Under the pieces are notes generated by a model. The model ran no database searches and was not told the origin of the DNA. It saw nothing but the letters and a program-made list of their open reading frames with translations. From a virus (lineage: Duplodnaviria > Heunggongvirae > Uroviricota > Caudoviricetes), in IMG/VR virus record IMGVR_UViG_3300033119_001367: 64,000 nucleotides of DNA. One strand, given 5' to 3'. This document shows positions 19,138 to 62,300 of the stretch, piece after piece. A program made the position numbers and the translations under genes. Positions within the stretch are counted from its first letter, which is position 1, and each line of letters opens with the position of its first letter.

Positions 19138-19144
19138 CAATTAA

Positions 19145-43372: not shown

Positions 43373-43568
43373 CGCAGTTTGGATGTCTTTAGAAATGCAA
43401 ACAGCTTTTACCTTTATTAAAGATATAGCCGATAAAAACTTTGAATATAGTATATTGTATGGAATAGATTTTAGTAAAGATAATAGATATACTATAGCAA
43501 AAGAGATATATGAAAAATCTTATAAAGATATATTACCAATATCATATTTAGAATATTATAAACCATGA
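43356..43568 (+). CDS. hypothetical protein (70 aa)
   Basis: ORF track; overlaps both neighbours by a few nt. Confidence 0.35.
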   Translation: MKQEYNAVWMSLEMQTAFTFIKDIADKNFEYSILYGIDFSKDNRYTIAKEIYEKSYKDILPISYLEYYKP

Positions 43569-44269
43569 GTTATACCAATAGAGATGTTGTCAGCCAAATC
43601 AGGAGTATGAGTAAGCTACTTAGTAGTGATAATTTTATTACAGATAGGGCAATCCTTAGAGAGGCTAAGGATGCTTGTAATTTATTAATAAAACAAAGTC
43701 AAGATAAAAGGAAATTATGGCAATCACCTAACGTGTTTGCCTTTTTTCCATGCCTTGAAATGGAGAAAGTCCCTATCTCTGAATGTTGTGAATATATCTC
43801 AGAGACTATGGTTGCTAAATCCAAAAAGAAACTTCCAAAGATTGGAGAAGGAACTTGGGGGTTAGCTATACAAGGTGTATATGGTCTGGATATGACTAAG
43901 AAATTAAAAGAAGTTAACCCAAACAGGTATGCAAATATCTTAAAACTTAAACTAAATGTTAATGACGTATATTACTGGATCTTAAATGATCACCTTTATA
44001 TATCTAATCCAGATACAAAAGCTGCTAATGTATTCCTATATCCTGCTGAGATAGTTAGTAATGACTTACTATTTCCAGGAAAGGATTGTGATTGCATGGT
44101 TAAGCCACATATAAGTGATTTATGTGCTAATCCTTTGGATCAGCCATTCTATGCTCCAGCAGATAGAATTACAGATATAAAAAACATAGTTTATTCCACA
44201 TTAATGAAGACTTATTTCAATTTAGCAGTTGATAAGACTTCAGATAATAAAGATGATACAAGTAAATGA
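43565..44269 (+). CDS. hypothetical protein (234 aa)
   Basis: ORF track. Confidence 0.55.
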   Translation: MSYTNRDVVSQIRSMSKLLSSDNFITDRAILREAKDACNLLIKQSQDKRKLWQSPNVFAFFPCLEMEKVPISECCEYISETMVAKSKKKLPKIGEGTWGLAIQGVYGLDMTKKLKEVNPNRYANILKLKLNVNDVYYWILNDHLYISNPDTKAANVFLYPAEIVSNDLLFPGKDCDCMVKPHISDLCANPLDQPFYAPADRITDIKNIVYSTLMKTYFNLAVDKTSDNKDDTSK

Positions 44270-44739
44270 GAGTAGCCGTAGAATATAGAACTACAGAGAA
44301 GGATGTTTTTAAAAGGTTTAAACAGAAACATCCAGAATTAAAAATAGACTATAATACCTGGTGTAATATAGTCTATAATTTCAATTATGCCTTCAGGGAT
44401 TATATACTGGAAACAGGGAGAAAAATCAAGTTTCCATATGGTTTTGGAGACTTTACAATAACAAAATATAAACCCAAAAAAGAAAAAGAACTTCCTGATG
44501 GTACAAAAATAATAGGCTTACCAGTTAACTGGGCTAAAACTAAAGAGCATGGTAAATTAATTTACCATATGAATTTTAATACCGAGGGATTTAAATTTAA
44601 ATGGCAGTGGGATAAGAAAAATGCTAGATTTCAATACTCTGCTTTATGGTGTTTTAAACCATCCAGGGTTACTTCTAGATTATTAAATCATTATCTTTCT
44701 CAACCAGAACAACATTATAAATACCAAGAGTGGAGTTAA
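44266..44739 (+). CDS. hypothetical protein (157 aa)
   Basis: ORF track. Confidence 0.55.
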   Translation: MRVAVEYRTTEKDVFKRFKQKHPELKIDYNTWCNIVYNFNYAFRDYILETGRKIKFPYGFGDFTITKYKPKKEKELPDGTKIIGLPVNWAKTKEHGKLIYHMNFNTEGFKFKWQWDKKNARFQYSALWCFKPSRVTSRLLNHYLSQPEQHYKYQEWS

Positions 44740-44740
44740 T

Positions 44741-45598
44741 ATGAATTACTACAAATATACCTTTGAAAGCCCAGAAAGATTAATAGCTATTGTTAAAGAA
44801 GAGTTTAAATCATTTTTTGATACAGGGGCTATTGATGACACTATGTTTCCCATTTATCTGTCTAAATGTTTAGATAGGTTAGGAAGAGGTTCATATAGAA
44901 TAAATTCAGCTATTCTTACAATGAGTGATTTTCAAGGAAGACTCCCTGATGATTTTTATGCTGTAAGAGAAGCTTGGTTATGCACTGATGTATCATCTGC
45001 TTATGTATTACCTGGGGCTGATTATCAACAAGTTGAATCCACTTCTACAAGATTAGATACCCCAGATGTATATTGTGATAAATGTAATGAGTGTGGTATG
45101 CCTGATATTATTAAAGCGGTATATAAAACTACTCATACAGCCTTTGCACACTATAAGAAGCAATACCTGCTAAAACCTGGTACTATATGGAGTAAAGGTG
45201 AGTGTGCTGAAGACTGTGCAAATTTCCATTCTAATGGTCCAGATTCTTTTGATATACATGATAATAAATTTACTGTAACCTTTAGAGAAGGAAAAGTATA
45301 CTTAGTGTATTATTCAAAAAGCTTTGATTGTAATGGGTATGAAATGATTCCTGATAATTACAGATTAAAAGAATTCATTGAAGCCTTCTTAAAAATGAAG
45401 GTTTGGGAACAGGTTGTGAATAATAATACTGATGAAGGATTAACAAAATATTATCTTAATCAGTTAGATAGGTATACAAGAATGGCTGATGAAGCTTATA
45501 TTATCGCAGATATAGAGAAGAAAAAAGAAACTGTATATGATATAAACAGGAAGATAATAAAGGATATGAACCGTTTTCAAAAATATGAGATAAGATAA
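44741..45598 (+). CDS. hypothetical protein (285 aa; CDKCNECG)
   Basis: ORF track. Confidence 0.55.
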   Translation: MNYYKYTFESPERLIAIVKEEFKSFFDTGAIDDTMFPIYLSKCLDRLGRGSYRINSAILTMSDFQGRLPDDFYAVREAWLCTDVSSAYVLPGADYQQVESTSTRLDTPDVYCDKCNECGMPDIIKAVYKTTHTAFAHYKKQYLLKPGTIWSKGECAEDCANFHSNGPDSFDIHDNKFTVTFREGKVYLVYYSKSFDCNGYEMIPDNYRLKEFIEAFLKMKVWEQVVNNNTDEGLTKYYLNQLDRYTRMADEAYIIADIEKKKETVYDINRKIIKDMNRFQKYEIR

Positions 45599-45599: not shown

Positions 45600-48500
45600 A
45601 TGGCTGAAGAAATTTCACTGAATCCTAAACAACTTTATTTTGGTTTAAATCCTGACTCTATAACTTCACAGTTAAAGCCAGGGCAATATCCTTATGCACT
45701 GAATGCCGTAGTAGAGGGATGGGATGGTAACATATTAACTATTCAGAATGAACAAGGCAATCTTTTTTGTTTTGATTTTCCTGTAGGATATAAAGTTATA
45801 GGAGCTAAAAATATCTCTCAATTAGGTAAGATATTTTTTATACTTACAAATCCAGAAACTGGAGATAGTGAAGTAGGGCTTGGGACTAATGATACTTGTG
45901 AATATAAAACCCTTATATCTGATGTAGGAAATGGTTGTAAATTTGGGTTTAATATCAATTTTCCCATTCACAAAATGGTTGTAAAAACAACCAATTGTTC
46001 TACACAGGTTTACTTTACTGATGGTCAACCGGGTCACAGGATGTATATTGATTTGGATGATTTACCCTGGGTTGAGGAAATTGATCCAAATAATTCCTTC
46101 AAAAGAATAAAGAAAGTAGGGGAACTGGATTGTAATAAGTTAAGGGTTCAACCTGATTTTAGTATACCTGAAATAAAGGGAACCGAAGTTACCATTGGTG
46201 GAAACTTATTAACTGGTGTTTATCAGGGGGTTGTACAATATGCAAATTCTTTAGGAGAAGGTCTTACAGGGATGTATAATGCTACAAATCCTATTGGTAT
46301 TTTTGAACAGAAAGAATCACCAGATTTTAACCTTCCGACTGCTAAAGCAATTACATTTGAGATAACAAACCTGGATCAGAGTGGACTATATGAGTATTTC
46401 AATCTAATAGTAATAAAAACAATTAATAATATAGTATCTGTAGAACAAGTAGGTACTTTCCCCACTGCGAATCCTACTTATACATATACATACACTGGTG
46501 TTAATAAAACAGATAAGGCTCTTAATATAGAAGATGTATTTCAGAAGTACCCATATTATGATGTGGCAGAAGATTTATTTGTGGTGGATAATGTACTTGG
46601 TTGGGATATACTTAAAGAGACTGAAGAAAAGAATTATCAACCATTCTGGAGTAAAGTAAGTTTACTTTGGGAATCATATAAAATACCTTATAATCAATTT
46701 CAGGGTTATAATAATGGTATTAATGTAGAGAAGTTTAAGGGGTATATGAGGGATGAAGTATATCCTTATGAAGGTTGTTTTATATTCAAGAATGGTAAAC
46801 AATCCAGGTCTTACCATATCCCTGGTAGACAAGCTAATATGCAGGATGTACAGATTGTTCAGCCAGATAATCCAGATAATGGGTTTTCCACTGTTGATCC
46901 CTGTAACCCTCCTAAGCCAAAATTCTATTGGCAAGTTTATAATACAGGTAGTGTAACTGCTACACCATATCCTACTACTCCTGGAGATTGTTATATCGGA
47001 CCATATCAATATGGAGAAATGGCTTACTGGGAAAGTGAAGAAAGGTATCCTAATAATACAGAGATATGGGGAACATTAGCCAATCAAAGAATCAGACATC
47101 ATAAAATGCCTGATGTATTGGTTAGTCCTATACATGATAATAATGACTTAAATGACCCTTCCTTTGAACATTCTATATTTCCATTAGGGGTTAAGATAAA
47201 TCCTATATCTTTTATACAGGCTCTTAAGGAAACACTTACTGCTGAAGAAATTTCACAAATAGCAGGATTTAAGATAACAAGAGGAAACAGGGTAAATAAT
47301 AAGAGTATCATAGCTAAAGGACTTATACACAATGTAGGTGTTACAAGATATGATGATAAGAATTATTTTTATCCTAATTATCCATTTAATGATTTAAGGG
47401 AAGATCCTTATTTCGTAAATACAAAATTGGATAGTCATGCTGGATTTATAACTAATGATGCTTTAAAAGGATTTGACAATCTGGATTCTAAAAGTCATTT
47501 TACTTTCCATTCTCCTGATACTCATTTTTATCAACCTTCTTTAGGTAATACAGGACAGTTTCTTAAGATGGAAACTATTGAGTATGGACAATCTGTTGGG
47601 CATTTTGTTAAAGTAACTGATAATGCAGAATATAAATTTCTTACACCAAGAGCTATTCAGGCTGCTGCTGGACTAGGTATTTCTGGTGGTGTAGTTATTG
47701 GAGCTGGTATGATGGGGTGGCCTGAGTATACAATGGCTAATGTAGTTCCTACTTATGTAGCTGCTGTAGAACTATTTGAAAGGTTAGCACCATTTACAAA
47801 CTTTGGTTATACTTTTAACTCTGTTGGAAACTATAACAGGTCATTTGGAATACCTAATGATGGGTTTAAACAAAGGGGAATAAACTTTAATAAATATATT
47901 ATAGACGGACTAAACTCTGTTGAAAATGGAAAGGTTATAAATAATTTCCGTAGAGAAAGTTCTGTATATATAGCAACTGGTGGAGATTTTCAATTTCCAC
48001 ATGAATATTCTAATAGTATCCCTACAGATACTTCTAGATACAATATAGCATCTCTAAATGGTGATTTTCTATCCCCAGAAACAAATAGACTAGCTGACAT
48101 AAGTTCTTATTATGGTTCTATAAAAAGAGACTTACCTAATCAATGGGGATATATGTACTCTTATGAAACCATTGATACAGGATATTACCAGAGTCTTAGG
48201 GATTCACTGGGTAACTTTGTATCAGAATATCCTACTATATTCGGTGGAGATGTGTTTATAAACAGGTTTGCTTATAAATCAAAGCTTCCATTCTTTAGGG
48301 ATAATACAGTTGGGAATCCTAATGCTACTGATATAGCATATGAGGATATAGGAAACTTAAATTACCCTATGTTCTGGATGTCTACCAAAGCCCAGAGTTA
48401 TGATGTTGATTTAGATGCTGAGATTGAAGATGTTAGACAGGAATTTCTTGCTCCTTCATTTTTTGATATTATAGCTAATATAGTTGGTGGTGGTGCTAGA

Positions 48501-50231
48501 GGTTCTCAAAAAGCTATGGCTTTAGTTGCTAAATTATTTGAAGAAATAGGAGATAAGATAGGTGTAAAGAATCTTAATCTTGACAGAGCTGTTTCATCCA
48601 GGTTATTTGAACAAGGTCTATTCTATTTATTTGCTTATGGCATTCCTTATTTCTTTTGTGAATCAGAGGTTAATGTGGATTATAGGCAAGCTACTAATAC
48701 CAGAGAAGGTAATTTCTACCCTAATGTAGGAGGAGATATACCTGATGATTGGTTACAAGAAGTATCTGTTCCCATTATCCAGGATAATATGTACACTTAT
48801 AATAAGACGTATTCTAAACAGAATAAAGAAAATTATTTTGCACACCTCAGAGAAGATTATGACCCTAACAAACTATGTAATTCTGAATTTCAGAATAGAG
48901 CAATTTGGTCAGAAAAGTCTTCTCTTGAGGAAACAAAGAATAACTGGTTAGTATATAAACCTATTAGCAGGATAGATTTTCCTAAGAACTATGGATTACT
49001 AGTATCTGTTGATGGTATTGAGAATACCCAAGTACTGGTAAGATTTGAAAATAAAACACAGTTATATAACACATTATTAACAGCTCCTACAAGTGTAGCA
49101 GATGTATATCTTGGTAAGAGTCTATTTACAACTACTGTACCACCTTGGGATTATGCAGATACAGATTTAGGTTATATAGGTACACAGAACAAGTTCCTGT
49201 TAAAAACAGAGCATGGAGATATTACTATAGATGCTTTAAGAGGTCAGATATTCTTAATTAAAGGACAACAAAGTAAAGAACTAAGTGCTGAAGGTGCTAG
49301 TAAATTCTTTACAGAGTATCTTCCATTTACAATAAAGAAAGCTTTCCCAGAGTATTCTATTGATAACCATTTCAATGGTGCTGGATTACATGGAGTTTAT
49401 GACCCTAAATATGACAGGTTTATAATAACTAAATTAGACTATAAACCATTACTCAGCACTATTACTTATGATGGAGAAGTGTTTAAGGATGGTGGTACAG
49501 TAGTAGAATTAACCGATTCTAAGTATTTCTGTAATACATCCTTTACTATATCTTATTCATTCACTACTAATTCATGGACTTCATACCATTCTTATTTACC
49601 TAACTACTATGTGGGAAATAACAATTTTTTCTACTCAGGTAAACAAAATGGTATCTGGAAACATGATACAGCATTAACTCTTTATAATAACTTCTATGGA
49701 GAAATTGCTCCATATATTATAGAGTATCCTTATTCATATAAATACTTAGATGAGATATTACAAAATGTACAGGACTATTCAAAAATACTACAGTACGATA
49801 ATTGGCAGTCCTTCGTTGAGACGGATGATTTTTATTTTAACAAATGTATAGTTTATTCCAATCAACAATGTTCTGGTATACTAGAGTTAGATAAGAAACC
49901 AAAGAATAACTTGTTTACACAGAAAGAGTATCCCAAGTATAACCCTGAATCCAAGACTATTCTATATACAAAATCAGGTAGTTTTTATCAGTTTAATACA
50001 TTCTGGGACTTGGTGAAGAATAATAAACAACCTATTTGGTTACCTTCTTGTGAGTCTGTTTCTATATTCAAAGAGCTTAATCAGAGTAATATGTCTTATA
50101 ATAAGAGATCTTTTAACAAAGCTCCTATTAGGTCTAAAGATTTAAAGATTAGACTGATTAACGACAAATATGATAATCTTAAATTTGTGAGTTCCTTTTT
50201 TGTTACCCAAACACAAAAATCTTATAAATAA
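45600..50231 (+). CDS. giant virion/tail protein (1543 aa)
   Basis: Uninterrupted 4.6-kb ORF; ATAATATGG junction with the upstream gene. Confidence 0.65.
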   Translation: MAEEISLNPKQLYFGLNPDSITSQLKPGQYPYALNAVVEGWDGNILTIQNEQGNLFCFDFPVGYKVIGAKNISQLGKIFFILTNPETGDSEVGLGTNDTCEYKTLISDVGNGCKFGFNINFPIHKMVVKTTNCSTQVYFTDGQPGHRMYIDLDDLPWVEEIDPNNSFKRIKKVGELDCNKLRVQPDFSIPEIKGTEVTIGGNLLTGVYQGVVQYANSLGEGLTGMYNATNPIGIFEQKESPDFNLPTAKAITFEITNLDQSGLYEYFNLIVIKTINNIVSVEQVGTFPTANPTYTYTYTGVNKTDKALNIEDVFQKYPYYDVAEDLFVVDNVLGWDILKETEEKNYQPFWSKVSLLWESYKIPYNQFQGYNNGINVEKFKGYMRDEVYPYEGCFIFKNGKQSRSYHIPGRQANMQDVQIVQPDNPDNGFSTVDPCNPPKPKFYWQVYNTGSVTATPYPTTPGDCYIGPYQYGEMAYWESEERYPNNTEIWGTLANQRIRHHKMPDVLVSPIHDNNDLNDPSFEHSIFPLGVKINPISFIQALKETLTAEEISQIAGFKITRGNRVNNKSIIAKGLIHNVGVTRYDDKNYFYPNYPFNDLREDPYFVNTKLDSHAGFITNDALKGFDNLDSKSHFTFHSPDTHFYQPSLGNTGQFLKMETIEYGQSVGHFVKVTDNAEYKFLTPRAIQAAAGLGISGGVVIGAGMMGWPEYTMANVVPTYVAAVELFERLAPFTNFGYTFNSVGNYNRSFGIPNDGFKQRGINFNKYIIDGLNSVENGKVINNFRRESSVYIATGGDFQFPHEYSNSIPTDTSRYNIASLNGDFLSPETNRLADISSYYGSIKRDLPNQWGYMYSYETIDTGYYQSLRDSLGNFVSEYPTIFGGDVFINRFAYKSKLPFFRDNTVGNPNATDIAYEDIGNLNYPMFWMSTKAQSYDVDLDAEIEDVRQEFLAPSFFDIIANIVGGGARGSQKAMALVAKLFEEIGDKIGVKNLNLDRAVSSRLFEQGLFYLFAYGIPYFFCESEVNVDYRQATNTREGNFYPNVGGDIPDDWLQEVSVPIIQDNMYTYNKTYSKQNKENYFAHLREDYDPNKLCNSEFQNRAIWSEKSSLEETKNNWLVYKPISRIDFPKNYGLLVSVDGIENTQVLVRFENKTQLYNTLLTAPTSVADVYLGKSLFTTTVPPWDYADTDLGYIGTQNKFLLKTEHGDITIDALRGQIFLIKGQQSKELSAEGASKFFTEYLPFTIKKAFPEYSIDNHFNGAGLHGVYDPKYDRFIITKLDYKPLLSTITYDGEVFKDGGTVVELTDSKYFCNTSFTISYSFTTNSWTSYHSYLPNYYVGNNNFFYSGKQNGIWKHDTALTLYNNFYGEIAPYIIEYPYSYKYLDEILQNVQDYSKILQYDNWQSFVETDDFYFNKCIVYSNQQCSGILELDKKPKNNLFTQKEYPKYNPESKTILYTKSGSFYQFNTFWDLVKNNKQPIWLPSCESVSIFKELNQSNMSYNKRSFNKAPIRSKDLKIRLINDKYDNLKFVSSFFVTQTQKSYK

Positions 50232-50237: not shown

Positions 50238-50756
50238 ATGGAATTATTCAAAACAACCCAGCCAAAAAACCCATTTGCTTCTGAATCTGTAATTAAGATA
50301 CTGAATTATAGGATAGAACAAGAAGAACAATCTTCCAGATTATACCAAGCCATGTCTTTATGGTTAAATGATCATGGGTTTATGGGTGCAGCTAAAGCTT
50401 GGAAAAAGGATTCAGAAGATGAAATGACTCACGCTAATTGGGCTAAAGAATATCTATTGGATATGGGTGTACAACCTACATTACCTGCTTTACCAAAGCC
50501 ACAACAAGAATTCCCTGGATTGTGTGAGATAATAAAGATGTCCTTTGAGCATGAAATATTGGTTACAAAACAATGTAATGATCTAGCTAATAATGCTTTA
50601 AAGACAGGTGATAATCTCCTGTATCAGTTAGCTAATAAATTCCTGCAAGAGCAACAAGAAGAAATTGGTAAGTTACAAACTTTACTTGATAAGCTTGAAG
50701 CTTTTGGTGAAGATAAAATTGCACTTAGATTACTTGACAATGAATTAGGAAGCTAA
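50238..50756 (+). CDS. ferritin (FtnA-like, 172 aa)
   Basis: LYQAMSLWLNDHGFMGAAKAWKKDSEDEMTHANWAKEYLLDMG is collinear with the E. coli FtnA segment [43 protein letters not shown]. The ferroxidase ligands (E, ExxH, E in FEHE, E in EQQEE) are conserved. Confidence 0.75.
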   Translation: MELFKTTQPKNPFASESVIKILNYRIEQEEQSSRLYQAMSLWLNDHGFMGAAKAWKKDSEDEMTHANWAKEYLLDMGVQPTLPALPKPQQEFPGLCEIIKMSFEHEILVTKQCNDLANNALKTGDNLLYQLANKFLQEQQEEIGKLQTLLDKLEAFGEDKIALRLLDNELGS

Positions 50757-53665
50757 TGGGATGGTTAAAAAAATATCAAGAAGGAGGCACTATAAAAGCT
50801 CAGGGTGGAAAAAGCTTTGAAGATATTACTAGGATAAAAACTGTTACTTCTTTAAATAATTATTCTAGTGATGCTACACTAATGAAGCAAATAAAAAAAG
50901 AAAATTCTAATAATCCGTTATATCGTTATTATGATGATAAAACTATTCAATGGATGTTGAATAATTTTGTAAAAAATGATTCAAAGAATTTACTACCAAC
51001 TGCTCAAAAAGGTGGACGTACACCAATATATGTAACTGATCCTAAAGATCCACTAAAAATGGCTTATGATGATAGTTTGAAATTACATAATTATGGACTT
51101 CAAGCAGAGAAATACTTTAAAACAAATATAGAACCAATTTTAAGACATGGTAAACAAAACCCCTCAAGAGAACTAGAATTAGTTGATGATGCTATTAGAC
51201 TATGGAATGGAAAAAATAGAGGTGGGATTTTACCAAAAGCTCAATCAGGAATTACTACTGCTGAAAATTTTAATGCACAATGGATAGATTCTCCAAAGTA
51301 TAAAGAAATGTTAGAAAAAAGTGCAGGTATGAATAGTTCTGTTTATGATGCTGCAAGAAAAATAGCTTTAAAGAATACAACTGTTAAGAGAAGTGAAAAT
51401 TCAACACTAGTGCCTGGTGAAAAAGTTTCAGGGTTGTCAGTAATAGGTTCTAATAAGTTTCCTGTTATTACTACAGCAAGAGTTGATAGTAAGTATAATT
51501 CATCTGGTATATTAGTACCAGGAGAAAAAGATATTGATACAGCAATTCATGAATTATCACATGCTTCAGATTATAATGGTACACTTATTCCTTCAATAGA
51601 TCAAAATAAAATTAATTCCTATGCTGCTAAAGATATATATACATCTCCAGCAATCTTAGATAATTTTAAAAATAAAAATATTAATGAATTACAACAAAAA
51701 CAAATTGTAAATGATGTATGGGATTCTACAACAAGAGATACTGTTAATAAACAAATGAAATATGTTGGTGATCCATCTGAAACAAGAGCTAGATTAAATA
51801 GTATTAGAGCTCATTCTAAACGTAATAATATTTATAATCCTTTTACGCAATTTATTAATCCTGAACAATTAAATAAAATAAATATCGATTCTTTAAGTGA
51901 TTTAAGAATGATTTATACAGATGCTGAAATAGTTGATTTATTAAATAGTGTATCAAAAACAGATAATAATCAACAACTTCCTATTGCTCAAAGTGGTGGA
52001 AGTTTTGAAGCAATAACAGGAATAAAACCTATTAAATCTTTAACTAATGTTGCCAGTACAACAGCTCTACCAATAAACAAACAAAAAACATTAGCTCAAC
52101 AACAATTAGAAAGAATACAAGCTGAAGCAGCATATTTAAATCAAGGAAGAGTTCCAACAGCAGCTGAAAGAGCAGCAACTATTATAAAGAATAGAAACTA
52201 TGCAGCTAGCAATCCTTATTCAAAAGTAAATGAACAAGGAGACTTAGTCCCAAAACAATATAATAGAAGTGTAGCAGGTACACCAGATTATGGTTCAAGA
52301 GCTAAAGCTAATGATAAATTTATGGATCATGCTGCTAATGCTTTAGAAGCTGCAAGTTATGTAACAGGAGCTGGAGAATTATATGGAACGTATAAAAATA
52401 TTATGAAAGGTGCTGTAAAAGGTGCAAAATCTTTATCATCAACAGGTATTGATGAATTAGGTGTATATACACAACAAGGGGATAAAAAATTATATCAGTT
52501 AGGAGAAGGTTTTGGTGATATCCAACCTTTACCAAAAACAACACGTAGTTATCCATCTTCACAAGAATTAGGTATACAAAAAGCTATTGCAAAAGGACAA
52601 TTTAGTAAACAAGAATTATTAGGTGCAAGAAACTTTATGACTCCAAGAGAGAAAGAAATTTTTGATTTGTATACTAAAACTTCAAGCAAGTTTAATTGGA
52701 AACCAGGTGCAGATAATACAGAATATTTTAATGAGCTATCTAAATTAGCTAAAGATAATGGAATATCCATGGACGAATTATTACAAAGTAGTTTAACTAT
52801 CCTTAGGAAAATTCATGGTAATAAAGCAAAAAAATTGGGTGATTTTTATAATCTTCATATTATAGATCCAAAATTTCCAGAAAGTGGAGCTAGAAAAATA
52901 GTTGGAGAATCAGAAAATTTATTATCATCAGTAGATAGATCAACTAAAAGTATTGTTCCATTAGGTGATAATCAAATATGGAGTGAAGCTCAAAGAAAAA
53001 GAATGAATATCATAGATAATATGATAGATAATTTACCACCAGAACAACGTGCTAAATTTATTAAAATATCTCAAATTGATAATAAAAGAATGTATAATAG
53101 TGTAGTTGGAGAACCATACACAGGAGCAGAAGCTTTTAAAACAATTACACCAACATCAAGTGGAAGAATACCAAAAAATATAAAGAGTGGACTCACAAAT
53201 ACATCAACAGGTAATTCTAACGGTGTATTTAATACAGGACAACCCAATAGCACTATCAGCAATGTATCTGGCACTACATCTAATACAGGAATAAACATTC
53301 CTAATTCTTTAAAGAACATTGAGCAAGGTATTATAAATAAATCAAAGAGTGTGTCTTCTATAGATAATGTTGAGAATTCATATCCTTCATATAATACTGA
53401 TATTGATTATTCTGAAGTATTAAAACCTAAAAAATCCTTAATTAGTAAATTAGTGGGGACAGCTATGTCACCGGCTGTATTAGCAAATAATGAATTTACT
53501 AGGCAGTTAATGGATGCTATAAGAAAAGCCGAGCCAGAAGATGTTAATACTAAAAATATAAGGGATAATTTATTAAAAATTTTTCCAGGGTTTAAAGAAA
53601 AAACATTAATTTCTCCTAAAGAACAAGGTGGTACAATAAAAAATAATTGGCTTAATAAATATTAA
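50756..53665 (+). CDS. giant virion protein (969 aa) with HExxH motif and repeated PxAQxG motifs
   Basis: AIHELSHAS; four copies of [LI]P.AQ[SKG]G; an internal duplication, AQGGKSFEDITRIKTVTSLNN versus AQSGGSFEAITGIKPIKSLTN. Confidence 0.65.
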   Translation: MGWLKKYQEGGTIKAQGGKSFEDITRIKTVTSLNNYSSDATLMKQIKKENSNNPLYRYYDDKTIQWMLNNFVKNDSKNLLPTAQKGGRTPIYVTDPKDPLKMAYDDSLKLHNYGLQAEKYFKTNIEPILRHGKQNPSRELELVDDAIRLWNGKNRGGILPKAQSGITTAENFNAQWIDSPKYKEMLEKSAGMNSSVYDAARKIALKNTTVKRSENSTLVPGEKVSGLSVIGSNKFPVITTARVDSKYNSSGILVPGEKDIDTAIHELSHASDYNGTLIPSIDQNKINSYAAKDIYTSPAILDNFKNKNINELQQKQIVNDVWDSTTRDTVNKQMKYVGDPSETRARLNSIRAHSKRNNIYNPFTQFINPEQLNKINIDSLSDLRMIYTDAEIVDLLNSVSKTDNNQQLPIAQSGGSFEAITGIKPIKSLTNVASTTALPINKQKTLAQQQLERIQAEAAYLNQGRVPTAAERAATIIKNRNYAASNPYSKVNEQGDLVPKQYNRSVAGTPDYGSRAKANDKFMDHAANALEAASYVTGAGELYGTYKNIMKGAVKGAKSLSSTGIDELGVYTQQGDKKLYQLGEGFGDIQPLPKTTRSYPSSQELGIQKAIAKGQFSKQELLGARNFMTPREKEIFDLYTKTSSKFNWKPGADNTEYFNELSKLAKDNGISMDELLQSSLTILRKIHGNKAKKLGDFYNLHIIDPKFPESGARKIVGESENLLSSVDRSTKSIVPLGDNQIWSEAQRKRMNIIDNMIDNLPPEQRAKFIKISQIDNKRMYNSVVGEPYTGAEAFKTITPTSSGRIPKNIKSGLTNTSTGNSNGVFNTGQPNSTISNVSGTTSNTGINIPNSLKNIEQGIINKSKSVSSIDNVENSYPSYNTDIDYSEVLKPKKSLISKLVGTAMSPAVLANNEFTRQLMDAIRKAEPEDVNTKNIRDNLLKIFPGFKEKTLISPKEQGGTIKNNWLNKY

Positions 53666-53667: not shown

Positions 53668-56600
53668 ATGAAACACAAATTTCTAAAATTAGCAGGGGTA
53701 AAAACAGAGAAAGAATTTTATGAGAAGTATCCTGATGAAGCATCTTTCTTCAAGGCTTTCCCAAAAGCCAAAAAAGGTTTAGCAGTTACTCCTGAACAGC
53801 AGTTTGTGGGATTAAACAACCCTATGTATACGGAAATGGAATTTCCTATGCAGGGTAATAATATATTTCGTGGTTTAGATAATGGACAACCTGTATTACT
53901 GAAAGATGCTACTGGTAAACAAAAAATACTTACTGGACCACAAGATACTACTATTATGAAAGGAACTGTTAAAGAAAAAAGAATTAAAGCCCAGAAGGGG
54001 ACATCTATAGACCTTAAGAAAAAAGCTATACACACTGTAGAAGGTAGATATAGTGGTTTACAAGGTAATGATTCTCCAACCCTACTGGAGAGTATTAAAG
54101 GTAATATAGACTATTTTAACAACAACACTCCTGATAGTAATGTGTATAGACCAGAGTTTATGCATCATAGTATAAATGAGATGCCTATTGCACCCGTAGC
54201 TAAACATGGTAAGTCCATGAAGGGTAAAATACCTAAAGCACAGGGAGGGTTCTTTACTGGAAAGAAAAAGGGGTTAATTACTCAAGAGCAAAAGGATGAA
54301 ATGTTATGGGGAGATCAGTATGATAATACTATACCAGTAAATCCAGATGCTCAACCTGTTCAAGCTAATCCAAATTATGATCCAAATCAACAACCACAAT
54401 TTGTAGACCAGGGTTTTGGTACACCGATTCCTACATCCAGTGTTAAAACTAAGTTTCAAAAAACAAATGGAAAAGCAACTGTTGACCATCAACAGAGTAA
54501 AAATAACCACCCTTCATTTGGTGTTGGAGAGGCTATAACCTCTGGTATAGGAATGGCTCAGATGTTAATGGGTCCAGAAGGAGAAAGAAGAAAGATAGAT
54601 AATACCTTAGCTTATAATCCATATGCTTATGGTACTGGTTCACAAGCTATTGCAAAGAAAGGAAAATCTATTAAAGCTTCTCATCAAGGACAAGGGCTTA
54701 TGACCTATGAAGGAGGTAATGCTCCTAAAGTATCTGAGAATATGTTTGATGGTGGTACACACTTATTTACTGGGGACTCTCATGAAAAGGGTGGAATTAC
54801 TTCTTCTTTTAATGGTCAACCATTTGAAGCTGAGGGTGGAGAACCTTTTGCTAAAATAGAAGGTAAAGGTGTTGTTTTTGGAGACCTGATAAATCCAGTA
54901 ACTGGAAGAACTTATAAGAAAGACGCTAAAGAAATAATGAAAAAAGAACAAAAATTAACCAAGTATCTGGATAAAGGTACTAAGTTAGTTAATGAAAAAG
55001 ACCCTACAGATAAGTTTGAAAGATTAGCTTTCAATTCTGGTAGAGCTATGATGGAAGGAGCTGCCACTAAGCTAAAGCAAATAGCCGATTCTAAAGCTCA
55101 CCTTGCTGAATTACAGGAGGCACAACTTGAAATAGAAGGAGAACAAGCTTTTGCCAAACATGGTAAGATAATCAAAGCTCAAAGTGGTGTGACTGCTGCC
55201 CCAGCTCATGATCCTATAGAACTTCCAGATTTATATAGTAATCCTTATGAAGGACTTGTAAGGGAAGCTGCTAGACAAAATTTAGATTATGATCCTGAAA
55301 TATTTCATAGACTGGTAACTCAAGAAAGTGGTTATGACCCTACTCGGGAATCAAGAAAAAATCCTCGTACTGGTGTAAATGCTAAAGGGATAGTTATGCT
55401 TACTCCTAAAGTAGCTAAAAAGTATGGAATATCTCAAAAACAATTAACATCTACTGATGTCAATGATGTTAGAGCTGTTTTAGCTGCTGGTGCTACTGAA
55501 TTAGAAAATTTATTATATAAGTACAATGGTGATATAAAACTAGCTCTTGCTGCCTATAACGGTGGGGAAGGAACTATTAACCACGCTAAAAAGAAACTTG
55601 GAAAAGATAATATTACAGGGGATGAATGGTTAGCTTTTCAAGAAGAGGATTTTAAAAAAAGACCTTCAAAAGACCCTTCTTTATGGAGAACTCAGACAAG
55701 GGAGTATGTTAAAAATATAACTGCAACTGATAATAAGGAGTTCCCAACAAAGGCTAAGGCTTTTAACACTGACTTTTATAGTATTCCTGATTTTAGTTTA
55801 CCTACTCCACAGCTAAAGGGTTTAACACCTGAAGAAATAGCTGCTATGGATGGTAAGAAACCTAATACACCTAATCAACCAGCTAAAGGTTCGGACCCTT
55901 TTCAATGGCAGAAAGTAGAACCTTGGAAGATAAATCCTACAAAAGATAAACTTGAACTTTCTCAAGTGATGGGAGAAACTGCTGCATTATTTGATAGACC
56001 AGATTTTGTAGAAGGACAAAGGTATAATCCAGACCTATATACACCTTATCAGGTATCTTTCCAGGACAGGATTAATCAGAACTCTAAGACATTCAATGCT
56101 TTACAGAGTACTATGGCTGGTAATCCAGAAGCTCTAGCTACTATGGCTGGACAACAGTATTCTGCTAATGATGCTGTATTAGCTGAAGAGTTCAGGACTA
56201 ATCAGGCTATATCTAATGATATAACTAATAAGAATGTGGCATTATTAAATGATGCAAAACTAAAGAATATATCCCTAATTGATCAACAGTATGTTAGACA
56301 AAACCAAGCTAAGAGTATAACTAAACAGAATAGGACAAATGCTCTTAACTCTATATCTTCCAAGATATTGCAGAAGAAAGCCTCTAATAATTTGTTAAAC
56401 ACATATAAGAACCTGTTCCCTCACTATGACTTTGATAATAACTATCAAGTAGTTAAACAAGGTCCAGGTGGTGAACAATATGTTACTTTTCCTACTCAAA
56501 TAGGTACTAATCCTTTCGCTGCTACTGATAAGAAGACTCAAACTACTTATGAGAATGGTGTTGAAAAATCAAAGAAAGAAACTATTGAACCCACTTATGT

Positions 56601-56691
56601 AAGGGATAAAAAATACCTGGAATTGCAGAAGCAACTTGGTGATTTGAAATTCAATGGAAGTATTATTAAAAAATATAAAGGTTCAAATTAA
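53668..56691 (+). CDS. giant virion protein (1007 aa) with lytic transglycosylase (SLT) domain
   Basis: TQESGYDP...GIVMLTP...LALAAYNGGEG matches the family-1 LT signature (catalytic ES, AYNxG); also 3 copies of KAQ[KGS]G. Confidence 0.7.
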   Translation: MKHKFLKLAGVKTEKEFYEKYPDEASFFKAFPKAKKGLAVTPEQQFVGLNNPMYTEMEFPMQGNNIFRGLDNGQPVLLKDATGKQKILTGPQDTTIMKGTVKEKRIKAQKGTSIDLKKKAIHTVEGRYSGLQGNDSPTLLESIKGNIDYFNNNTPDSNVYRPEFMHHSINEMPIAPVAKHGKSMKGKIPKAQGGFFTGKKKGLITQEQKDEMLWGDQYDNTIPVNPDAQPVQANPNYDPNQQPQFVDQGFGTPIPTSSVKTKFQKTNGKATVDHQQSKNNHPSFGVGEAITSGIGMAQMLMGPEGERRKIDNTLAYNPYAYGTGSQAIAKKGKSIKASHQGQGLMTYEGGNAPKVSENMFDGGTHLFTGDSHEKGGITSSFNGQPFEAEGGEPFAKIEGKGVVFGDLINPVTGRTYKKDAKEIMKKEQKLTKYLDKGTKLVNEKDPTDKFERLAFNSGRAMMEGAATKLKQIADSKAHLAELQEAQLEIEGEQAFAKHGKIIKAQSGVTAAPAHDPIELPDLYSNPYEGLVREAARQNLDYDPEIFHRLVTQESGYDPTRESRKNPRTGVNAKGIVMLTPKVAKKYGISQKQLTSTDVNDVRAVLAAGATELENLLYKYNGDIKLALAAYNGGEGTINHAKKKLGKDNITGDEWLAFQEEDFKKRPSKDPSLWRTQTREYVKNITATDNKEFPTKAKAFNTDFYSIPDFSLPTPQLKGLTPEEIAAMDGKKPNTPNQPAKGSDPFQWQKVEPWKINPTKDKLELSQVMGETAALFDRPDFVEGQRYNPDLYTPYQVSFQDRINQNSKTFNALQSTMAGNPEALATMAGQQYSANDAVLAEEFRTNQAISNDITNKNVALLNDAKLKNISLIDQQYVRQNQAKSITKQNRTNALNSISSKILQKKASNNLLNTYKNLFPHYDFDNNYQVVKQGPGGEQYVTFPTQIGTNPFAATDKKTQTTYENGVEKSKKETIEPTYVRDKKYLELQKQLGDLKFNGSIIKKYKGSN

Positions 56692-56777: not shown

Positions 56778-59330
56778 ATGTCGAATTTTACCGATCAACC
56801 AATTCAGTTCAATCCTTACATCGAGACTACCCCTGTTCAAGCAATGGTAGCTGTAGGTATGCAGAAGGAACAAGACTTTAAGCAAGGAATTGCTAAGGTA
56901 CAAGCCTATGTGGATACTATAGCTGGGTTGGATATAGCTAAGGAAGAGCATAAACAATATGTATCTACTAAACTCAATGAGGTTAAGCAGGGTATTGCCA
57001 AGAATCTGTCTGGGGATTTCTCTGATAGTAGAATAACCAACCAGATTGGTGGAGCTGCTGTACATATTTATAAAGACCCTATAGTACAAAATGCTGTAAT
57101 ATCAACTGGTAATTACAGGAAAGGTATAGCTGATATAGAAGCAGCCAGAAAAGCTGGTAAATCAAATATAGCTAATGAGACAGTATTTACTGATTCAGCA
57201 AATGAATGGTTAAGTGACAAGAATGTTTCCACTTCTTTTAAAGATAGCTTTACTCCTTATACAGATAAAATTGACATATTTTTAAAATATTGGAAAGAGA
57301 CAAACCCAACAGAGAATCCAGATGAAGATATGACAAGGATTAACTCTAAAGGAGAAAGGGAAATTAACCCAGTTATATTTAAAGGAAAGACTGCTGAACA
57401 AGTACAAGCTGTTTGGAATCTGGTGAAAGGTGATGCCAATGTTCAACAACAATTACAAATAGATGGTAAATTTATGTTCAGAGGAAAAAAGCCCTCTGAA
57501 ATATATCAGGGAATAGAGGAAAGGGCTAACCAGATAATAAAGAAAAATGAAGAGCTTATATTAAGCTTATCTGCTAAAGCTGCTGTTGGAGACAAAGATG
57601 CCCAAGCAAGTATACAAAGTTTAAAAGAATTAAACAAAGGGCAGATAGAGTCTCTATCTACTTACAAAGAAGGATTAACAATTAATCCAGATGCTGTAAA
57701 AGCTAATATAGTTTCTCAACAAACTCTATCAAGTTTAATAGGTGCATACACTTCAAAAGTAATGGAGAAAAATCCTTTATGGGAGACCTCTTTTGAAATG
57801 AGTAAATGGAATATTCAGATGCAGCAGTGGTCTATGCAGCATAAACTTGCAACGGATAAATTTGCTTGGGATAAAGAAATGGATGTAGCTAATTACAATT
57901 TAGCAGCTACTAAAGAAGCAAGGGAGGCAAAGAAGGCTAAGGAAGAAGCTGAAGGTGTAAAAAGTCCTACAGCCTTAAATCCTACTGAAGTAATAAAAAA
58001 TGAAAATACAGCAAGAGAGGATATTAGTAAAAATCAATATGTATATACTCAAAGTATGAGAGAGTTGGCATATAACCTTGCTGTTAAACAGGGAGTTCCA
58101 GTACCTTATTATAAAGATGATGCTACTGGTACATGGGTTCCAAATGTTGGTACAGGAAAGGATTATAAAACAGAAAATGATGCAAATGCTGTAGCTAAGA
58201 AATTTTTTGATGAAGCAGCTTCATCTAATGGTGTTGGTACTCTTATACAGAATGATAAGAAATTATATGATTTATATACAAAATCACAAGATAACTATGC
58301 TAACTTAGAGTTATCTAAAAAGATAGTTAACGATGTAGAAACAGCTTTTGCTCCACAAATGGATGCTTTAGTAAATACCATAAGCCAAGAAGTTAAAGTG
58401 TCTAAAGAAGCTGCTTCCGATTTTACAAAAGCTTATATAGTAAAAAATAAGTTAAGTGGTTGGCAATCAACTGAACTTGGGTTGAAACAAAAATATGGTA
58501 ATGATTGGGAAGTTGGTATGAATATCGGAACTAATAATGTTGGATATGGAGAATATGTACAGGCAGTTCCACAAGCTTTAAAAGAAGCTTTTGATAAAGC
58601 TTCTAAAGTACTTGCTAAAAATCCCACATTATTAAATGTGGTAAAAGAAAAAGAGAATGCCTATATGGAAAGGCAAAAGTCCCCTGTTGGATATACAGTT
58701 ACTGTTCCATCTAATTTAAATGATATTACAAGAACTAATTATGCATCAGCAGTTACACAAGTAACTGACCTAAATCCTGGTTCTGATAAAGGGGATTATA
58801 AAAAGTTCGAGTCTCTTCTTTTTGGTAAACCCGATGTGCTTAAACAAAATATTTATAGCAGATACTTAAATCCTACTACACAAGAAGGATTCCTTTCAGT
58901 ACAAAATGGAGAGGAGAAAGCAACTATTAAAATACCTGGTTCAGAATATCTAAGGATGTTCCCAGAAGAAAATCAATATTCAGCCTTTAGACAAAAGTTC
59001 CAAACTAAGCTAAATTTGAACAGAGGTATGTATACTGGTAATAGTTTTACAGATGCTTACCAAGCATATCAGGGACCAGGATCTCCATATATTGTAAAAT
59101 ATAATGTTATATCTAATGGAGAAGGTGCTCATAAATTAAGATGGTGGGTAGCAAAACAAGATAGAACAGCTACTAAAACAGATATGATTATTGATGGTGA
59201 GATTATTGGGGAACATAATGGTTTAAACCAAGACATGTCAGAAGAGGCTATTATGGCTGCTGTTAATAAGTTACAGGATAAGAATTGGGTAGAGTTAAAT
59301 ATTGCACAAAAAATTAAATCAGGAAGATAA
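56778..59330 (+). CDS. giant virion protein (850 aa)
   Basis: ORF track. Confidence 0.6.
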   Translation: MSNFTDQPIQFNPYIETTPVQAMVAVGMQKEQDFKQGIAKVQAYVDTIAGLDIAKEEHKQYVSTKLNEVKQGIAKNLSGDFSDSRITNQIGGAAVHIYKDPIVQNAVISTGNYRKGIADIEAARKAGKSNIANETVFTDSANEWLSDKNVSTSFKDSFTPYTDKIDIFLKYWKETNPTENPDEDMTRINSKGEREINPVIFKGKTAEQVQAVWNLVKGDANVQQQLQIDGKFMFRGKKPSEIYQGIEERANQIIKKNEELILSLSAKAAVGDKDAQASIQSLKELNKGQIESLSTYKEGLTINPDAVKANIVSQQTLSSLIGAYTSKVMEKNPLWETSFEMSKWNIQMQQWSMQHKLATDKFAWDKEMDVANYNLAATKEAREAKKAKEEAEGVKSPTALNPTEVIKNENTAREDISKNQYVYTQSMRELAYNLAVKQGVPVPYYKDDATGTWVPNVGTGKDYKTENDANAVAKKFFDEAASSNGVGTLIQNDKKLYDLYTKSQDNYANLELSKKIVNDVETAFAPQMDALVNTISQEVKVSKEAASDFTKAYIVKNKLSGWQSTELGLKQKYGNDWEVGMNIGTNNVGYGEYVQAVPQALKEAFDKASKVLAKNPTLLNVVKEKENAYMERQKSPVGYTVTVPSNLNDITRTNYASAVTQVTDLNPGSDKGDYKKFESLLFGKPDVLKQNIYSRYLNPTTQEGFLSVQNGEEKATIKIPGSEYLRMFPEENQYSAFRQKFQTKLNLNRGMYTGNSFTDAYQAYQGPGSPYIVKYNVISNGEGAHKLRWWVAKQDRTATKTDMIIDGEIIGEHNGLNQDMSEEAIMAAVNKLQDKNWVELNIAQKIKSGR

Positions 59331-62300
59331 TGCCTAATACAGAGTTCGAGAATAAATTAAATGAGTCTAATTTTGGGAAAATGGGAAGTCTTCCTTCCTT
59401 TGGTCCTGGTCCCTCTGTGCCTATTGCTGATATGTCTTTAGATCAGATAAATAGTTCCCTGCAAAATCAGGGAAATTTAATATTGAATTCTTTTCAAAAT
59501 CCTTTTAAACCACAATTAATATCTCCAAAGCTTGTAGACCAAACAGGTAGATATGATAAACAATTAGTTGGGTGGGATAATGAGGATTTATATGGTCAGA
59601 TGCAAAGTAACTGGGACAAAGCAGCTAATGGTGTTTTAAAAGGTTTGACATTAGCTGGTACAACTTTTCTTCAGGGCACAGTAGGTTTAGTAAATGGCTT
59701 GGCAAATGTAGTTGGTGGAAATGGTTTAAACAGTTTCTACAATAATGATTTTTCTAATTATTTAGAGAAAATTAATAAGGAAGCTGAAAATGTTTTACCT
59801 AATTATTATACAGCACAAGAAACAAATGCAGCTTGGTATTCTCCAGATAATTTTTTTACTGCTAATTTTTTATGGGATAAAGTAATAAAGAATATAGGCT
59901 TTTCAATAGGTGCTATATACTCAGGTGGAGTAGTATCCAAGGCTTTATCTACAGCTATGAAAGGTGTTGGATTACTATCTGATGCCAGACAATTAGCAGC
60001 TTTAACAGAAACTTTGGAACAAGTACTGCCACAAACCCCAGTTGCTGCAAGAGTAACTAAATTTGTAGAAACTTTGACAAAAGCTCTCCCTAAATTATCT
60101 GCTACACAGGTAGATAGGGCAGTAACTTCTTTTTTTGGGGCTGCTACAGAAGGTGGAATAGAGGCTTTACAAGGTCTAAACGAATTTAGAGAAAGTAAAG
60201 TAGAAGAGTTTAGAGCTAAGAATTTTCGGATGCCAAATGCTGATGAGATGGCTAAGATTAATGAAGAAAGTACTTCATTAGGAAATGCTAGATTTATTAT
60301 GAATTTGGGATTATTATCTGCTACTAACTATATTCAATTACCAAAGATATTAGGTAGTAGATATTCTACTTCCAAAGCACTTGCTAATACAGAAGCTGCG
60401 GCTATGGGAGAGGTAGGTGCTACTAGAAGACTATTAGATGGTACTCTAGAAAGGGTTGCACCTAAAGGATTAGAAAAAGTAGCTAAAAATATTTATAAAG
60501 GCGGTGGATTATTCTTTTCTGGTAGTGAAGCCTTTGAAGAAGGTGCTCAATTTGTTTTTCAGGAAGGTACAAAGGATTATTATAATAAGAGATATGGTGG
60601 GGAAGGTGCATCTTTTATAGATTCTTTAGTGGAGGGGGTTAAAAAAGTACAGACTAAAGAGGGTATGGAAAGTATACTTCTGGGTGGTTTATCTGGAGGA
60701 ATGCAGCAAATCAGGGGTAATATAAAACAAAGAGGATTTTTAGGAGAAGGCGGATTACAGGGTGCAGCAACTGATAAACAAGTACAGGAAATTAATAATA
60801 CATCTAGTTTAAAGTGGTTTTCAGATATGAAAGATGCTGCTGCTAGAGGGGTTAATTTAATGTATGAAGGAGAAAGTTTTATAAGACAAGGGGATATTTT
60901 ATCTACTAAAGATAATGAAGCAGATTTAATGAATAATTATCTTGCTGTTAGAATAAAGCATGGTAGATATGACCTTGTAAAAGAAGATATAGCCGGGTTA
61001 AGAAATCAAGGAGCTACTAAAGAAGGGCTTGATAGATTAAAAAAAGAAGGATATGCTAATGAAAATGACACTGTTCTATCTTTTGGGAAACGCCTTAGTA
61101 ACTTTGAAAAACATGCAGATTTAGCTAAGACAACTTATGAAGCTTTATATTTAAAATATGGGGGTCAGTATTTAGAATTACCTGATGGTTCTAAAAAGAA
61201 GCTATATAGTGAAAGTGTTATAGATAAAATGGCTTATGCTGTTTCTAAAATAGCAGACTATGATACCAGAATATCTGAGCTTTCTCAAATACCCTTGTCG
61301 AAAGGTATTCCTGTACAGTCTATGATTGACAGTATTGTTAAAAATGACAAAGAAGCTTTTGAAATATCAAAAAAGGATATTGAAACTTTTGTCAATAATA
61401 TAAATGGCACTGTAGATGAGATTTCTGATCTAAAAAGGGATTTGAATGATATTTATATAATGACTAATAAGAGGCAGTCATTTTTAAAAGAATATAATGA
61501 TATAGCTACATCACCTGAGAAATATGATGAACCTGATGAAAAAATACTTACGCCATCCGATACTACTATTGTGGATGAGAATGGAATAGTTAAACCCAAA
61601 ACTATTAAGATAACCACTAAAGATGGTGAAGAAGATATTGAGATAGGTACAGAGTACTATCTAGGTGACTATGTTAAGAAAGATGCTAAGGGAAGAGATG
61701 TATATTTATTTCCTAAATTTACTGTACTTGGAGAAAATCCAGATGGTACTATACAAGTAAAAGATAAGGATGGTATAAGAAATGTATCTAAAGAAGAGTT
61801 TATAAAGTATAAGCCAGGTAAGGTATCTGATACACTTAACAATAAAAAAGCAAAATATTATTTCGATAATATTAATAATATATTTGAATTTAATTTTGGT
61901 AAAGGTAAAAAAAGAAAAGGTAGATTAAGATATTCCCCTAAAGACAGGATACTGGAGTTTGTTTATGTAGATGGTAATAAAACAAAAACCATAGAGGTTA
62001 CTGGTGATCAGTTTGTTCCTAAAAATGGTTACAAACAAGCCCTTATTACTAAAGTAGGAACACTTACTGTTGCTGAAGAAAAAACTTTACAGGATTTTGC
62101 TAAGGAGAAAGATGATAGGATACAGGAGAAAAGAGCTGCAAGACTTCAAATCATTGAGTCTATTGTAGATGAAACAGGTGACAGAATTGAAAAGGTAAAG
62201 AAATCCTTAGAAGAAAAGTATAGGCAATTAGATAATACTGTAATTGAGTTAGATAAACTTGAAGGCAAAATAAAAGCTGGAGAGTTAACTAAGAGAAATA

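Follow-up and report, generated by a model that had tools for sequence, protein, structure and literature searches.

Virus-encoded members of the ferritin superfamily have been reported as Dps-like proteins and Mn-catalases of Gratiaviridae and Lactobacillus phages (PMC8008677), as gp346 of phage G (PMC12484599), as gp217 of the Vi01-like phage Sajous1 (PMC10892097), and as ferritins of nucleocytoplasmic large DNA viruses (NCLDV) (PMC7136201). Here, we describe a ferritin gene (positions 50238 to 50756, plus strand) in a stretch of 64,000 nucleotides from the IMG/VR record IMGVR_UViG_3300033119_001367 (Caudoviricetes), referred to as the window throughout, which by its gene content is a genome fragment of a crAss-like phage. 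Like the proteins reported so far, two of which were detected in phage particle preparations, its predicted product is a virus-encoded four-helix-bundle di-iron protein, whereas those are mostly Dps-like or only structure-predicted and none of them comes from the Crassvirales.

The closest cellular counterparts are the prokaryotic nonheme ferritins (Ftn), such as those of E. coli (1EUM), V. cholerae (3QZ3), T. maritima (1VLG), and A. fulgidus (1S3Q). The phage protein has the same predicted five-helix topology, aligns collinearly with them over its full length, and retains all the intrasubunit ferroxidase ligands, along with counterparts of Y24 and Q127 and of three out of four site-C carboxylates. 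It differs in its low identity to them (28 to 35%), in carrying R25, E30, R34, and W68 where they have Q, a hydrophobic residue, a variable residue, and K, in an additional basic N-terminal tail followed by an NPFA motif, and in being phage-borne within a virion operon. Encapsulin iron storage provides only a conceptual analogy, with a ferritin-superfamily gene beside HK97-type capsid genes, as in those relatives of the window that encode it between the portal and the major capsid protein (MCP). Within their HK97-fold shells, encapsulins hold two-helix decamers or Flp proteins that bear targeting peptides; the phage protein, in contrast, is an Ftn with all five helices and lacks any recognized targeting peptide.

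With respect to genomic position, the best reference is PhiCrAss001, where the gene order is ring protein 2 (R2, gp40), the HU/IHF-like gp42, ring protein 1 (R1, gp43), the tail muzzle (MUZ, gp44), the cargo proteins C1 (gp45) and C2 (gp46), and gp47. In that phage, gp45, gp46, gp47, gp49, and gp50 were found in virions as cargo, and gp47, detected by mass spectrometry (MS), is a virion-packaged, RNA-polymerase-associated protein (PMC10172136). Since the window has a MUZ homologue upstream of the ferritin and a gp47 homologue downstream, the ferritin occupies the slot of C1 and C2, on the same strand and equally tightly packed. However, C1 and C2 are much larger (842 and 534 aa, against 172 aa) and have no sequence similarity to the ferritin, which lacks a predicted transmembrane segment.

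Predicted fold and ferroxidase center

The 172-aa product matches the Pfam profile PF00210 (E = 5.4e-25, 88.4 bits against a cut-off of 24.5), its residues 19 to 154 covering profile positions 1 to 140 of 142. Its alignment with E. coli FtnA is gapless (1EUM; residues 18 to 171 against 6 to 159, E = 1.2e-22), and sequence matches to ferritins in the PDB reach E values down to 4e-25. An AlphaFold2 monomer model built from 53 relatives (mean pLDDT of 92.9) shows helices A (16 to 45), B (49 to 75), C (95 to 123), D (126 to 156), and a short E (160 to 171), with a long BC loop. When this model was compared with the PDB by Foldseek, the top 50 matches were all 24-mer prokaryotic Ftn (TM scores of 0.85 to 0.92, root mean square deviation of 1.4 to 1.8 Å over ca. 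158 residues), without any competing bacterioferritin or rubrerythrin, and no Dps appeared among these or among the best 60 PDB sequence matches. The E helix, the extended BC loop, and the intrasubunit ligands ruled out assignment to Dps, the 12-mer mini-ferritins. Among the NCBIfam models, the nearest was non-heme ferritin; because the score for the FtnA equivalog NF007638 (91.7 bits) is far below its cut-off of 178, we consider the protein a member of the Ftn class and not an FtnA orthologue.

The gapless alignment gives an offset of +12 between the E. coli and phage numbering. Thus, the residues of the ferroxidase center in 1EUM (E17, Y24, E50, H53, E94, Q127, and E130) correspond to E29, Y36, E62, H65, E106, Q139, and E142 of the phage protein, while those of site C (E49, E126, E129, and again E130) have D61, E138, and E141 as equivalents of the first three. 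E29 lies in the motif EQEE, E62 and H65 in SEDEMTH, E106 in FEHE, and E138, E141, and E142 in EQQEE. Across 130 family members, E29, Y36, E62, H65, Q139, E142, E138, and E141 are invariant, and E106 is kept in 129, with D in the remaining one. Strong conservation in this alignment extends to the E helix and to the BC loop, through which ferritins form their two-fold (dimer) interface, giving indirect support to assembly into a presumed 24-mer cage that would have ferroxidase activity and an iron mineral core. Pairwise dN/dS values of 0.08 to 0.23 against relatives, with dS saturated, show the gene to be under purifying selection. Taken at the level of sequence and model, the product is a prokaryotic nonheme, Ftn-type ferritin with an intact ferroxidase center.

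A preliminary description of the window had proposed a 172-aa product collinear with FtnA that keeps all the di-iron ferroxidase ligands, and both proposals hold up: every motif it quoted falls on an E. coli FtnA ligand, the ferritin profile was matched above its curated threshold, the model reproduced ferritin helices A to E, and no nonferroxidase helical bundle gave a better match than Ftn. Its term "FtnA-type" is right as far as the Ftn class is meant, and wrong if read as the FtnA equivalog.

The ferritin gene within the tail and cargo block

The features of the window on which the following comparison is based are these.

33578-35128, MCP; Pfam Crass_capsid (E = 2.7e-26)
43565..44269, plus strand, R2 homologue; Pfam CrAss_Ring_2 PF25702 (E = 5.6e-16, 59.3 bits, cut-off 27)
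44266..44739, plus strand, 157-aa protein, function not assigned; no family match, 34-80% identity in relatives
44741..45598, plus strand, R1 homologue; Pfam CrAss_Ring_1 PF24228 (E = 9.4e-07, 28.9 bits, cut-off 27)
45600..50231, plus strand, MUZ homologue, 1543 aa; PHROG virion structural phrog_37948 (E = 1.7e-117) and phrog_15100
50238..50756, plus strand, ferritin, 172 aa, 19.7 kDa, pI 4.9; Pfam Ferritin
50756..53665, plus strand, 969-aa protein, cargo-like by position only
53668..56691, plus strand, 1007-aa SLT (lytic transglycosylase) protein; Pfam SLT PF01464 (E = 2.7e-15, residues 534-646)
56778..59330, plus strand, 850-aa protein; no family match, homologues of 25-48% identity at the same position in 12 related loci
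59330..64000, plus strand, gp47-like giant protein, N-terminal 1556 aa; the open frame runs off the window end

Besides the MCP and the two ring proteins, whose Crass_capsid, CrAss_Ring_1, and CrAss_Ring_2 matches bear out the earlier claim that the ferritin is phage-encoded, the terminase and portal were recognized by PHROGs. The order R2, 157-aa protein, R1, MUZ, ferritin, 969-aa protein, SLT protein, 850-aa protein, and gp47-like protein follows that of PhiCrAss001, with the 157-aa gene in the position of gp42. The 1543-aa gene comes directly after R1, as MUZ does in PhiCrAss001, and its product is 35% identical to a 1620-aa protein of the related locus L004 that itself matches Pfam crAss_MUZ (PF25731). 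The giant protein matches gp47 with a phmmer E value of 2.6e-32. The 1007-aa protein matches the PHROG "internal virion protein with endolysin domain" and is probably an ejected or internal virion protein. The 969-aa protein had no Pfam or PHROG match, its 25% identity over 274 aa being to the post-MUZ protein of a relative devoid of ferritin (L052). Therefore, of the two giant virion proteins said in the preliminary description to flank the ferritin, the upstream one stands as a MUZ homologue, while the downstream one is a virion or cargo protein by position only.

The open reading frame (ORF), 172 codons with an ATG start and a TAA stop, is as tightly packed as that description had it, within a codirectional virion operon: the start codon follows the end of the 1543-aa ORF (50231) by a gap of 6 nt, and the stop codon overlaps the start of the 969-aa ORF by 1 nt (TAATG). 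Intergenic distances across the tail and cargo block range from -4 to 86 nt, and no terminator-like hairpin was found in any intergenic position of the plus strand between 43672 and 59455. The short or overlapping gaps and the lack of an intergenic terminator fit a single long late transcript with translational coupling. The ferritin gene thus appears to lack both a promoter and a terminator of its own, and its translation is probably coupled to that of its neighbors, which would mean that the protein is made late, alongside virion proteins. A scan for sigma-70-like promoters was uninformative, as it returned fewer sites (71) than shuffled sequence (86.5 ± 8.8); the hosts probably use other promoter types.

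A phage-specific clade of ferritins

To place the protein among its homologues, we used two kinds of search. A word-indexed search gave at least 321 clusters (90% identity) at E ≤ 1e-10, and the best 120 of them were all ≥64% identical to the query and came from metagenomic contigs of up to 166 kb. An exhaustive search of 1.84 billion representatives gave 1787 matches at E ≤ 1e-3, 414 at E ≤ 1e-10, and 26 at E ≤ 1e-30. Together with the dN/dS values, the 414 matches place the ferritin well outside what chance would produce. When the best 150 were aligned, there was a sharp break. On one side were ca. 43 full-length clusters (50% identity) with R25, E30, and R34 on helix A (signature RIxQEExSSRLY), mostly also with W68 on helix B, and past the break all followed the cellular pattern of Q, hydrophobic, variable, and K at positions 25, 30, 34, and 68.

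Several lines of evidence suggest that this clade is viral. Members of ten of the ca. 43 clusters were found only on metagenome contigs of ≤133 kb. A scan with the family motif of one genome per species (185,579 species) hit a single locus (L037), on JALNZI010000005.1, a contig of 104,799 bp labeled as a "Candidatus Omnitrophota" metagenome-assembled genome (MAG), where the ferritin lies between ORFs of 1975 and 1911 aa; the contig has the size of a crAss-like genome and probably represents a phage that was binned with a bacterial MAG. Deposited phage genomes (50,697 records) contained no close homologue, with only five weak matches, all of ≤31% identity. Neither megablast of the 13-kb region against deposited phages nor a scan with P0289 as the query gave a match. 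BFVD contained a handful of viral proteins with the ferritin fold, the best being A0A8D9C9X5 of an "uncultured marine phage," a "putative bacterial non-heme ferritin" of the same fold (TM score of 0.86) but only 25% identity. The searchable literature yielded no report connecting crAss-like phages, or Crassvirales generally, with a ferritin that they encode. Hence, ferritin genes, previously described as very uncommon in phages, are indeed so among deposited genomes but not among uncultured crAss-like phages, with the ≥321 clusters given above. We consider the clade a previously undescribed group of phage-specific Ftn ferritins, the iron-storage function itself being ordinary.

Another feature of the clade is an N-terminal tail with a median length of 12 residues and a net charge of ca. 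+2 (range, 1 to 4 positive), compared with ca. -10 for the body of the protein. In the window ferritin, residues 1 to 10 are basic and predicted to be disordered (mean pLDDT of 55), and directly after the tail comes the nearly invariant motif N11-P12-F13-A14, which is more likely structural because it is modeled with high confidence just before helix A.

These substitutions and the tail raise the question of whether the fold has been co-opted, as a Dps-like DNA-binding or -condensing protein, as a chaperone or scaffold of tail or cargo assembly, or as a peroxide or oxygen scavenger. R25, E30, and R34 on helix A and W68 on helix B lie beside the active site, the tail is basic, other small oligomer-forming proteins (SPFH/Band_7, ClpP-like, and DUF5856) hold the same accessory slots in other phages, and the known phage proteins of the ferritin superfamily are mostly Dps-like or Mn-catalase-like (PMC8008677). 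However, the clade conserves its ferroxidase ligands, with D for E106 in only 1 of 130 members, along with the site-C residues E138, E141, and E142. It also retains the E helix and BC loop typical of 24-mer ferritins, its best sequence and structure matches are Ftn and not Dps, rubrerythrin, or catalase, and the tail carries merely one to four net positive charges. We regard co-option as improbable.

Placement in related loci and the question of packaging

The gene context was compared in all related loci (designated L001 and onward) with enough flanking sequence. In every one of them, the ferritin directly adjoins virion genes or giant ORFs and is read in the same direction; the adjacency noted in the preliminary description is seen in related phages as well, and the same arrangement appears in independent assemblies from JGI, ENA, Logan, and IMG/VR. 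The position itself is not fixed, and there are at least four across lineages. In type A, the gene follows MUZ, sometimes with one or two genes between them (the window, L001/L005, L003, L004, L006, L036, L038, L039, and L041). In type B, it comes immediately after the portal and ahead of the Crass_capsid MCP, in most cases with stop and start codons that overlap (22 IMG/VR loci, L007 to L028). In type C, it follows a virion protein of 232 aa that is encoded downstream of the MCP (L031 to L035), and in type D, between R1 and MUZ, directly before the latter (L040). In more divergent members (L037, L042, and L043), it is found between giant ORFs, which had no PHROG match, no match to a MUZ hidden Markov model built from eight homologues, and no DxDGD-type polymerase motif. 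No class could be assigned to these giant ORFs, which are related to each other only.

Cargo-like neighbors across the loci carry effector domains (SLT, ART-PolyVal, and NADAR). The ART-PolyVal ADP-ribosyltransferase and NADAR domains occur in giant proteins of the cargo slot (L041, 12014-18028; L004, 18085-20528; L038, 13506-20519), which suggests that ferritin-bearing relatives inject enzymatic effectors. In other phages, the same small-gene slots hold SPFH/Band_7, ClpP-like, or DUF5856 proteins, and small oligomer-forming accessory proteins, ferritin included, seem to be swapped among the same slots of the virion operon. The small DUF5856 gene after MUZ in L004 and L038 was considered as a second ferritin-like gene and rejected (hhalign probability of 0.2%).

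As a separate observation, the window itself has an SPFH/Band_7 (HflK/C-like) protein of 179 aa directly after the portal (31739-32278, plus strand), i.e., in the type-B ferritin slot. Such proteins are also present at L003 4901-5413 and L036 4914-5438, and homologues (23 to 40% identity) lie between R1 and MUZ in other ferritin-bearing phages.

This placement bears directly on the main rival reading, which we rate as rather unlikely, that the ferritin is a virion component packaged in the capsid or tail cargo zone together with other products of the muzzle-to-gp47 segment. There it would guard the packed DNA from iron-catalyzed oxidation, or its subunits would be ejected and reassemble to buffer the labile iron of the new host. 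In PhiCrAss001, the slot between MUZ and gp47 encodes only MS-detected cargo, gp45 and gp46 (PMC10172136). Across widely divergent phages and at no fewer than four independent positions, one and the same ferritin clade directly follows the portal ahead of the MCP (22 loci), directly precedes MUZ (L040), follows a virion protein (L031 to L035), or lies between giant ORFs (L037, L042, and L043), a repeated linkage for which there is no other explanation so far, and effector domains are found in the neighboring cargo proteins. The disordered basic tail (ca. +2) on a body of ca. -10 loosely resembles the DNA-binding tail of Dps. There are also precedents, since a ferritin-like protein was detected in particles of phage G (PMC12484599) and gp217, encoded in the tail operon of a Vi01-like phage and ferritin-like according to Phyre2, was found by MS (PMC10892097); ferritin- or Dps-like domains in BFVD proteins named prohead protease point weakly in the same direction.

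On the other hand, phmmer comparison of the ferritin with PhiCrAss001 gp40 to gp50 gave no match, and no homology to gp45 or gp46 is detectable. No motif common to the ferritin and the neighboring cargo proteins was found: NPF, tried as a shared packaging motif, occurs once each in the 969-aa, 1007-aa SLT, and giant proteins, at unrelated positions and near chance frequency. A 24-mer of 12 nm is wider than the tail constrictions, which are below 50 Å (PMC10172136), so that ejection would need disassembly. The nonvirion homing endonucleases gp37 and gp41 sit within the same PhiCrAss001 block, and position is thus no proof of packaging. The gene is also dispensable, being absent from 13 of the 14 muzzle-matched loci and from all 80 portal-matched loci within 10 kb (see below). 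It seems to us doubtful that ferritin subunits or cages are true cargo of the HK97-type head or the tail barrel, coassembled with portal, muzzle, and cargo, and we are just as skeptical of the role that such cargo would have, shielding the packed genome from iron-driven oxidation or seizing the labile iron of the next host within seconds.

Distribution and probable exchange among crAss-like phages

The ferritin of the window is 57 to 76% identical to those of phages whose TerL, portal, and MCP are only 21 to 28% identical to its own and whose ring and muzzle proteins are 18 to 36% identical. Closer relatives lack the gene, absence being judged around the portal and MUZ only. The C terminus of the window muzzle matched 14 IMG/VR loci, 13 of which had no ferritin in the fetched region despite muzzles of 42 to 52% identity over the full length and the same gene order; the sole carrier (L045) is on the same contig as L001, the closest relative. 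None of the 80 loci with a portal of 55 to 58% identity had a ferritin within 10 kb of it. Compared with L001, the ferritin (88% identity) is not better conserved than MUZ (92%) or R1 (94%).

Purely vertical inheritance under extreme constraint, considered as the cause of this contrast in identity, was rejected on the basis of these ferritin-less closer relatives and of the conservation relative to L001, which favor acquisition from a distant crAss-like lineage. Lateral exchange of the ferritin between crAss-like phages is therefore likely from the sequence comparisons, and the gene appears as an accessory one in the lineage of the window, patchily distributed across phage lineages. In a neighbor-joining tree, the ferritins group by context type, so that few relocation events are needed. 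Cotransfer of the ferritin and its 969-aa neighbor as a cassette was also considered and discarded, given that the 56 to 59% identity shared with L036 and L006 spans only 29 to 32 residues.

A gene missing from most close relatives is not essential, and it might be a neutral hitchhiker, a host contaminant, or an assembly chimera with no role in the phage. We find this scarcely credible. The arrangement recurs in the independent assemblies (JGI, ENA, Logan, and IMG/VR), dN/dS is 0.08 to 0.23 (with dS saturated), the GC content of the gene (0.343) is near that of the window (0.320), the scan of 185,579 species gave one match only, on the 105-kb contig between giant ORFs, and identity to cellular ferritins is at most ca. 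35%. The conservation and the independent assemblies largely refute an artifactual or neutral origin.

A probable role in iron sequestration

On balance, and with modest confidence, we favor a late, cotranslated, and catalytically competent Ftn ferritin that sequesters iron, encoded by an accessory gene of the crAss-like phage. The gene would have been inserted precisely between the muzzle and cargo genes, and its product, made late with the virion proteins, would assemble into a 24-mer cage. Fe2+ would be oxidized at the intrasubunit di-iron center (E29, E62, H65, E106, Q139, and E142, close to Y36) and deposited as a ferric mineral, so that labile iron in the infected cell would fall while virions assemble. 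The phage may benefit from reduced Fenton damage to its DNA and proteins or from control (hoarding) of a scarce nutrient. The identity of the protein, its fold, its conserved active site, the purifying selection, the operon position, and the patchy distribution were all established above, and from these we infer the 24-mer, the enzymatic activity, the late timing, and the physiological benefit. Packaging in the virion is not required. The ferritins of giant viruses, interpreted as regulating iron during virion production, are a precedent for a cytoplasmic role of the auxiliary metabolic gene type (PMC7136201).

Some observations weigh against intracellular iron sequestration by an ordinary ferritin. 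A free-standing metabolic moron would have no need to sit persistently within virion and cargo blocks, at four or more different positions, and this placement fits packaging equally well or better. At helix-A positions conserved in cellular Ftn, the clade has R25 for Q, E30 for a hydrophobic residue, and R34, and it has W68 in place of K. The equivalent of the site-C residue E49 varies across the family (D, G, or E), being D61 in the window protein, and no iron-related partner gene was seen within the window.

Other features of the window and its relatives

Gene strand and GC skew both switch at ca. 19.7 kb, between a minus-strand part (1-19606) with many small ORFs and a plus-strand part (19819-64000) with the structural and cargo module, marking a divergent transcription point. 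A lone tRNA-Cys(GCA) is located among the minus-strand genes (13221-13292, minus strand). TerL (26041-29139, plus strand) has 1032 aa, compared with ca. 697 aa in relatives, and contains a LAGLIDADG homing-endonuclease domain (residues 315 to 386) between the two terminase halves, which looks like an intein. In L001, a gene with the homing-endonuclease-associated NUMOD1 domain (3073-3849), absent from the window, is inserted between Ring2 and a 158-aa gene, much as gp37 and gp41, both homing endonucleases, are in the same block of PhiCrAss001.

The 969-aa protein shares short repeated Q-x-G-G motifs (residues 6-11, 83-87, 161-164, and 411-415) with otherwise unrelated cargo-like proteins of distant phages (L036, 11278-14439; L006, 8514-9992; L052, 10647-12977). 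One such block of ca. 30 residues, Q(K/R)GGR.PIY..DP.DP...AY.DSL.L, is 56 to 59% identical. Such motifs might serve ejected proteins in cleavage or docking.

Implications

The ca. 43 clusters (50% identity) define a large clade of phage ferritins that annotation pipelines now label only as "ferritin" or leave unnamed. With its patchy distribution and strong conservation, the ferritin is a convenient marker of gene exchange among crAss-like lineages. Because the gene is embedded so systematically in the virion and cargo modules of crAss-like phages, packaging of the ferritin is a hypothesis that can be tested and is potentially surprising. If packaged, this would be the first ferritin cage shown as virion cargo. 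Such a particle would carry its own iron-handling nanocage and have a natural counterpart in encapsulins loaded with ferritin, and it would inform views of how densely packed phage DNA is protected, of the part that virus particles play in iron cycling (the "Ferrojan Horse" idea), and of how capsids and iron-storing encapsulins are related in evolution. If the ferritin is simply a late accessory gene, iron sequestration would be added to the host processes manipulated by the abundant environmental crAss-like phages.

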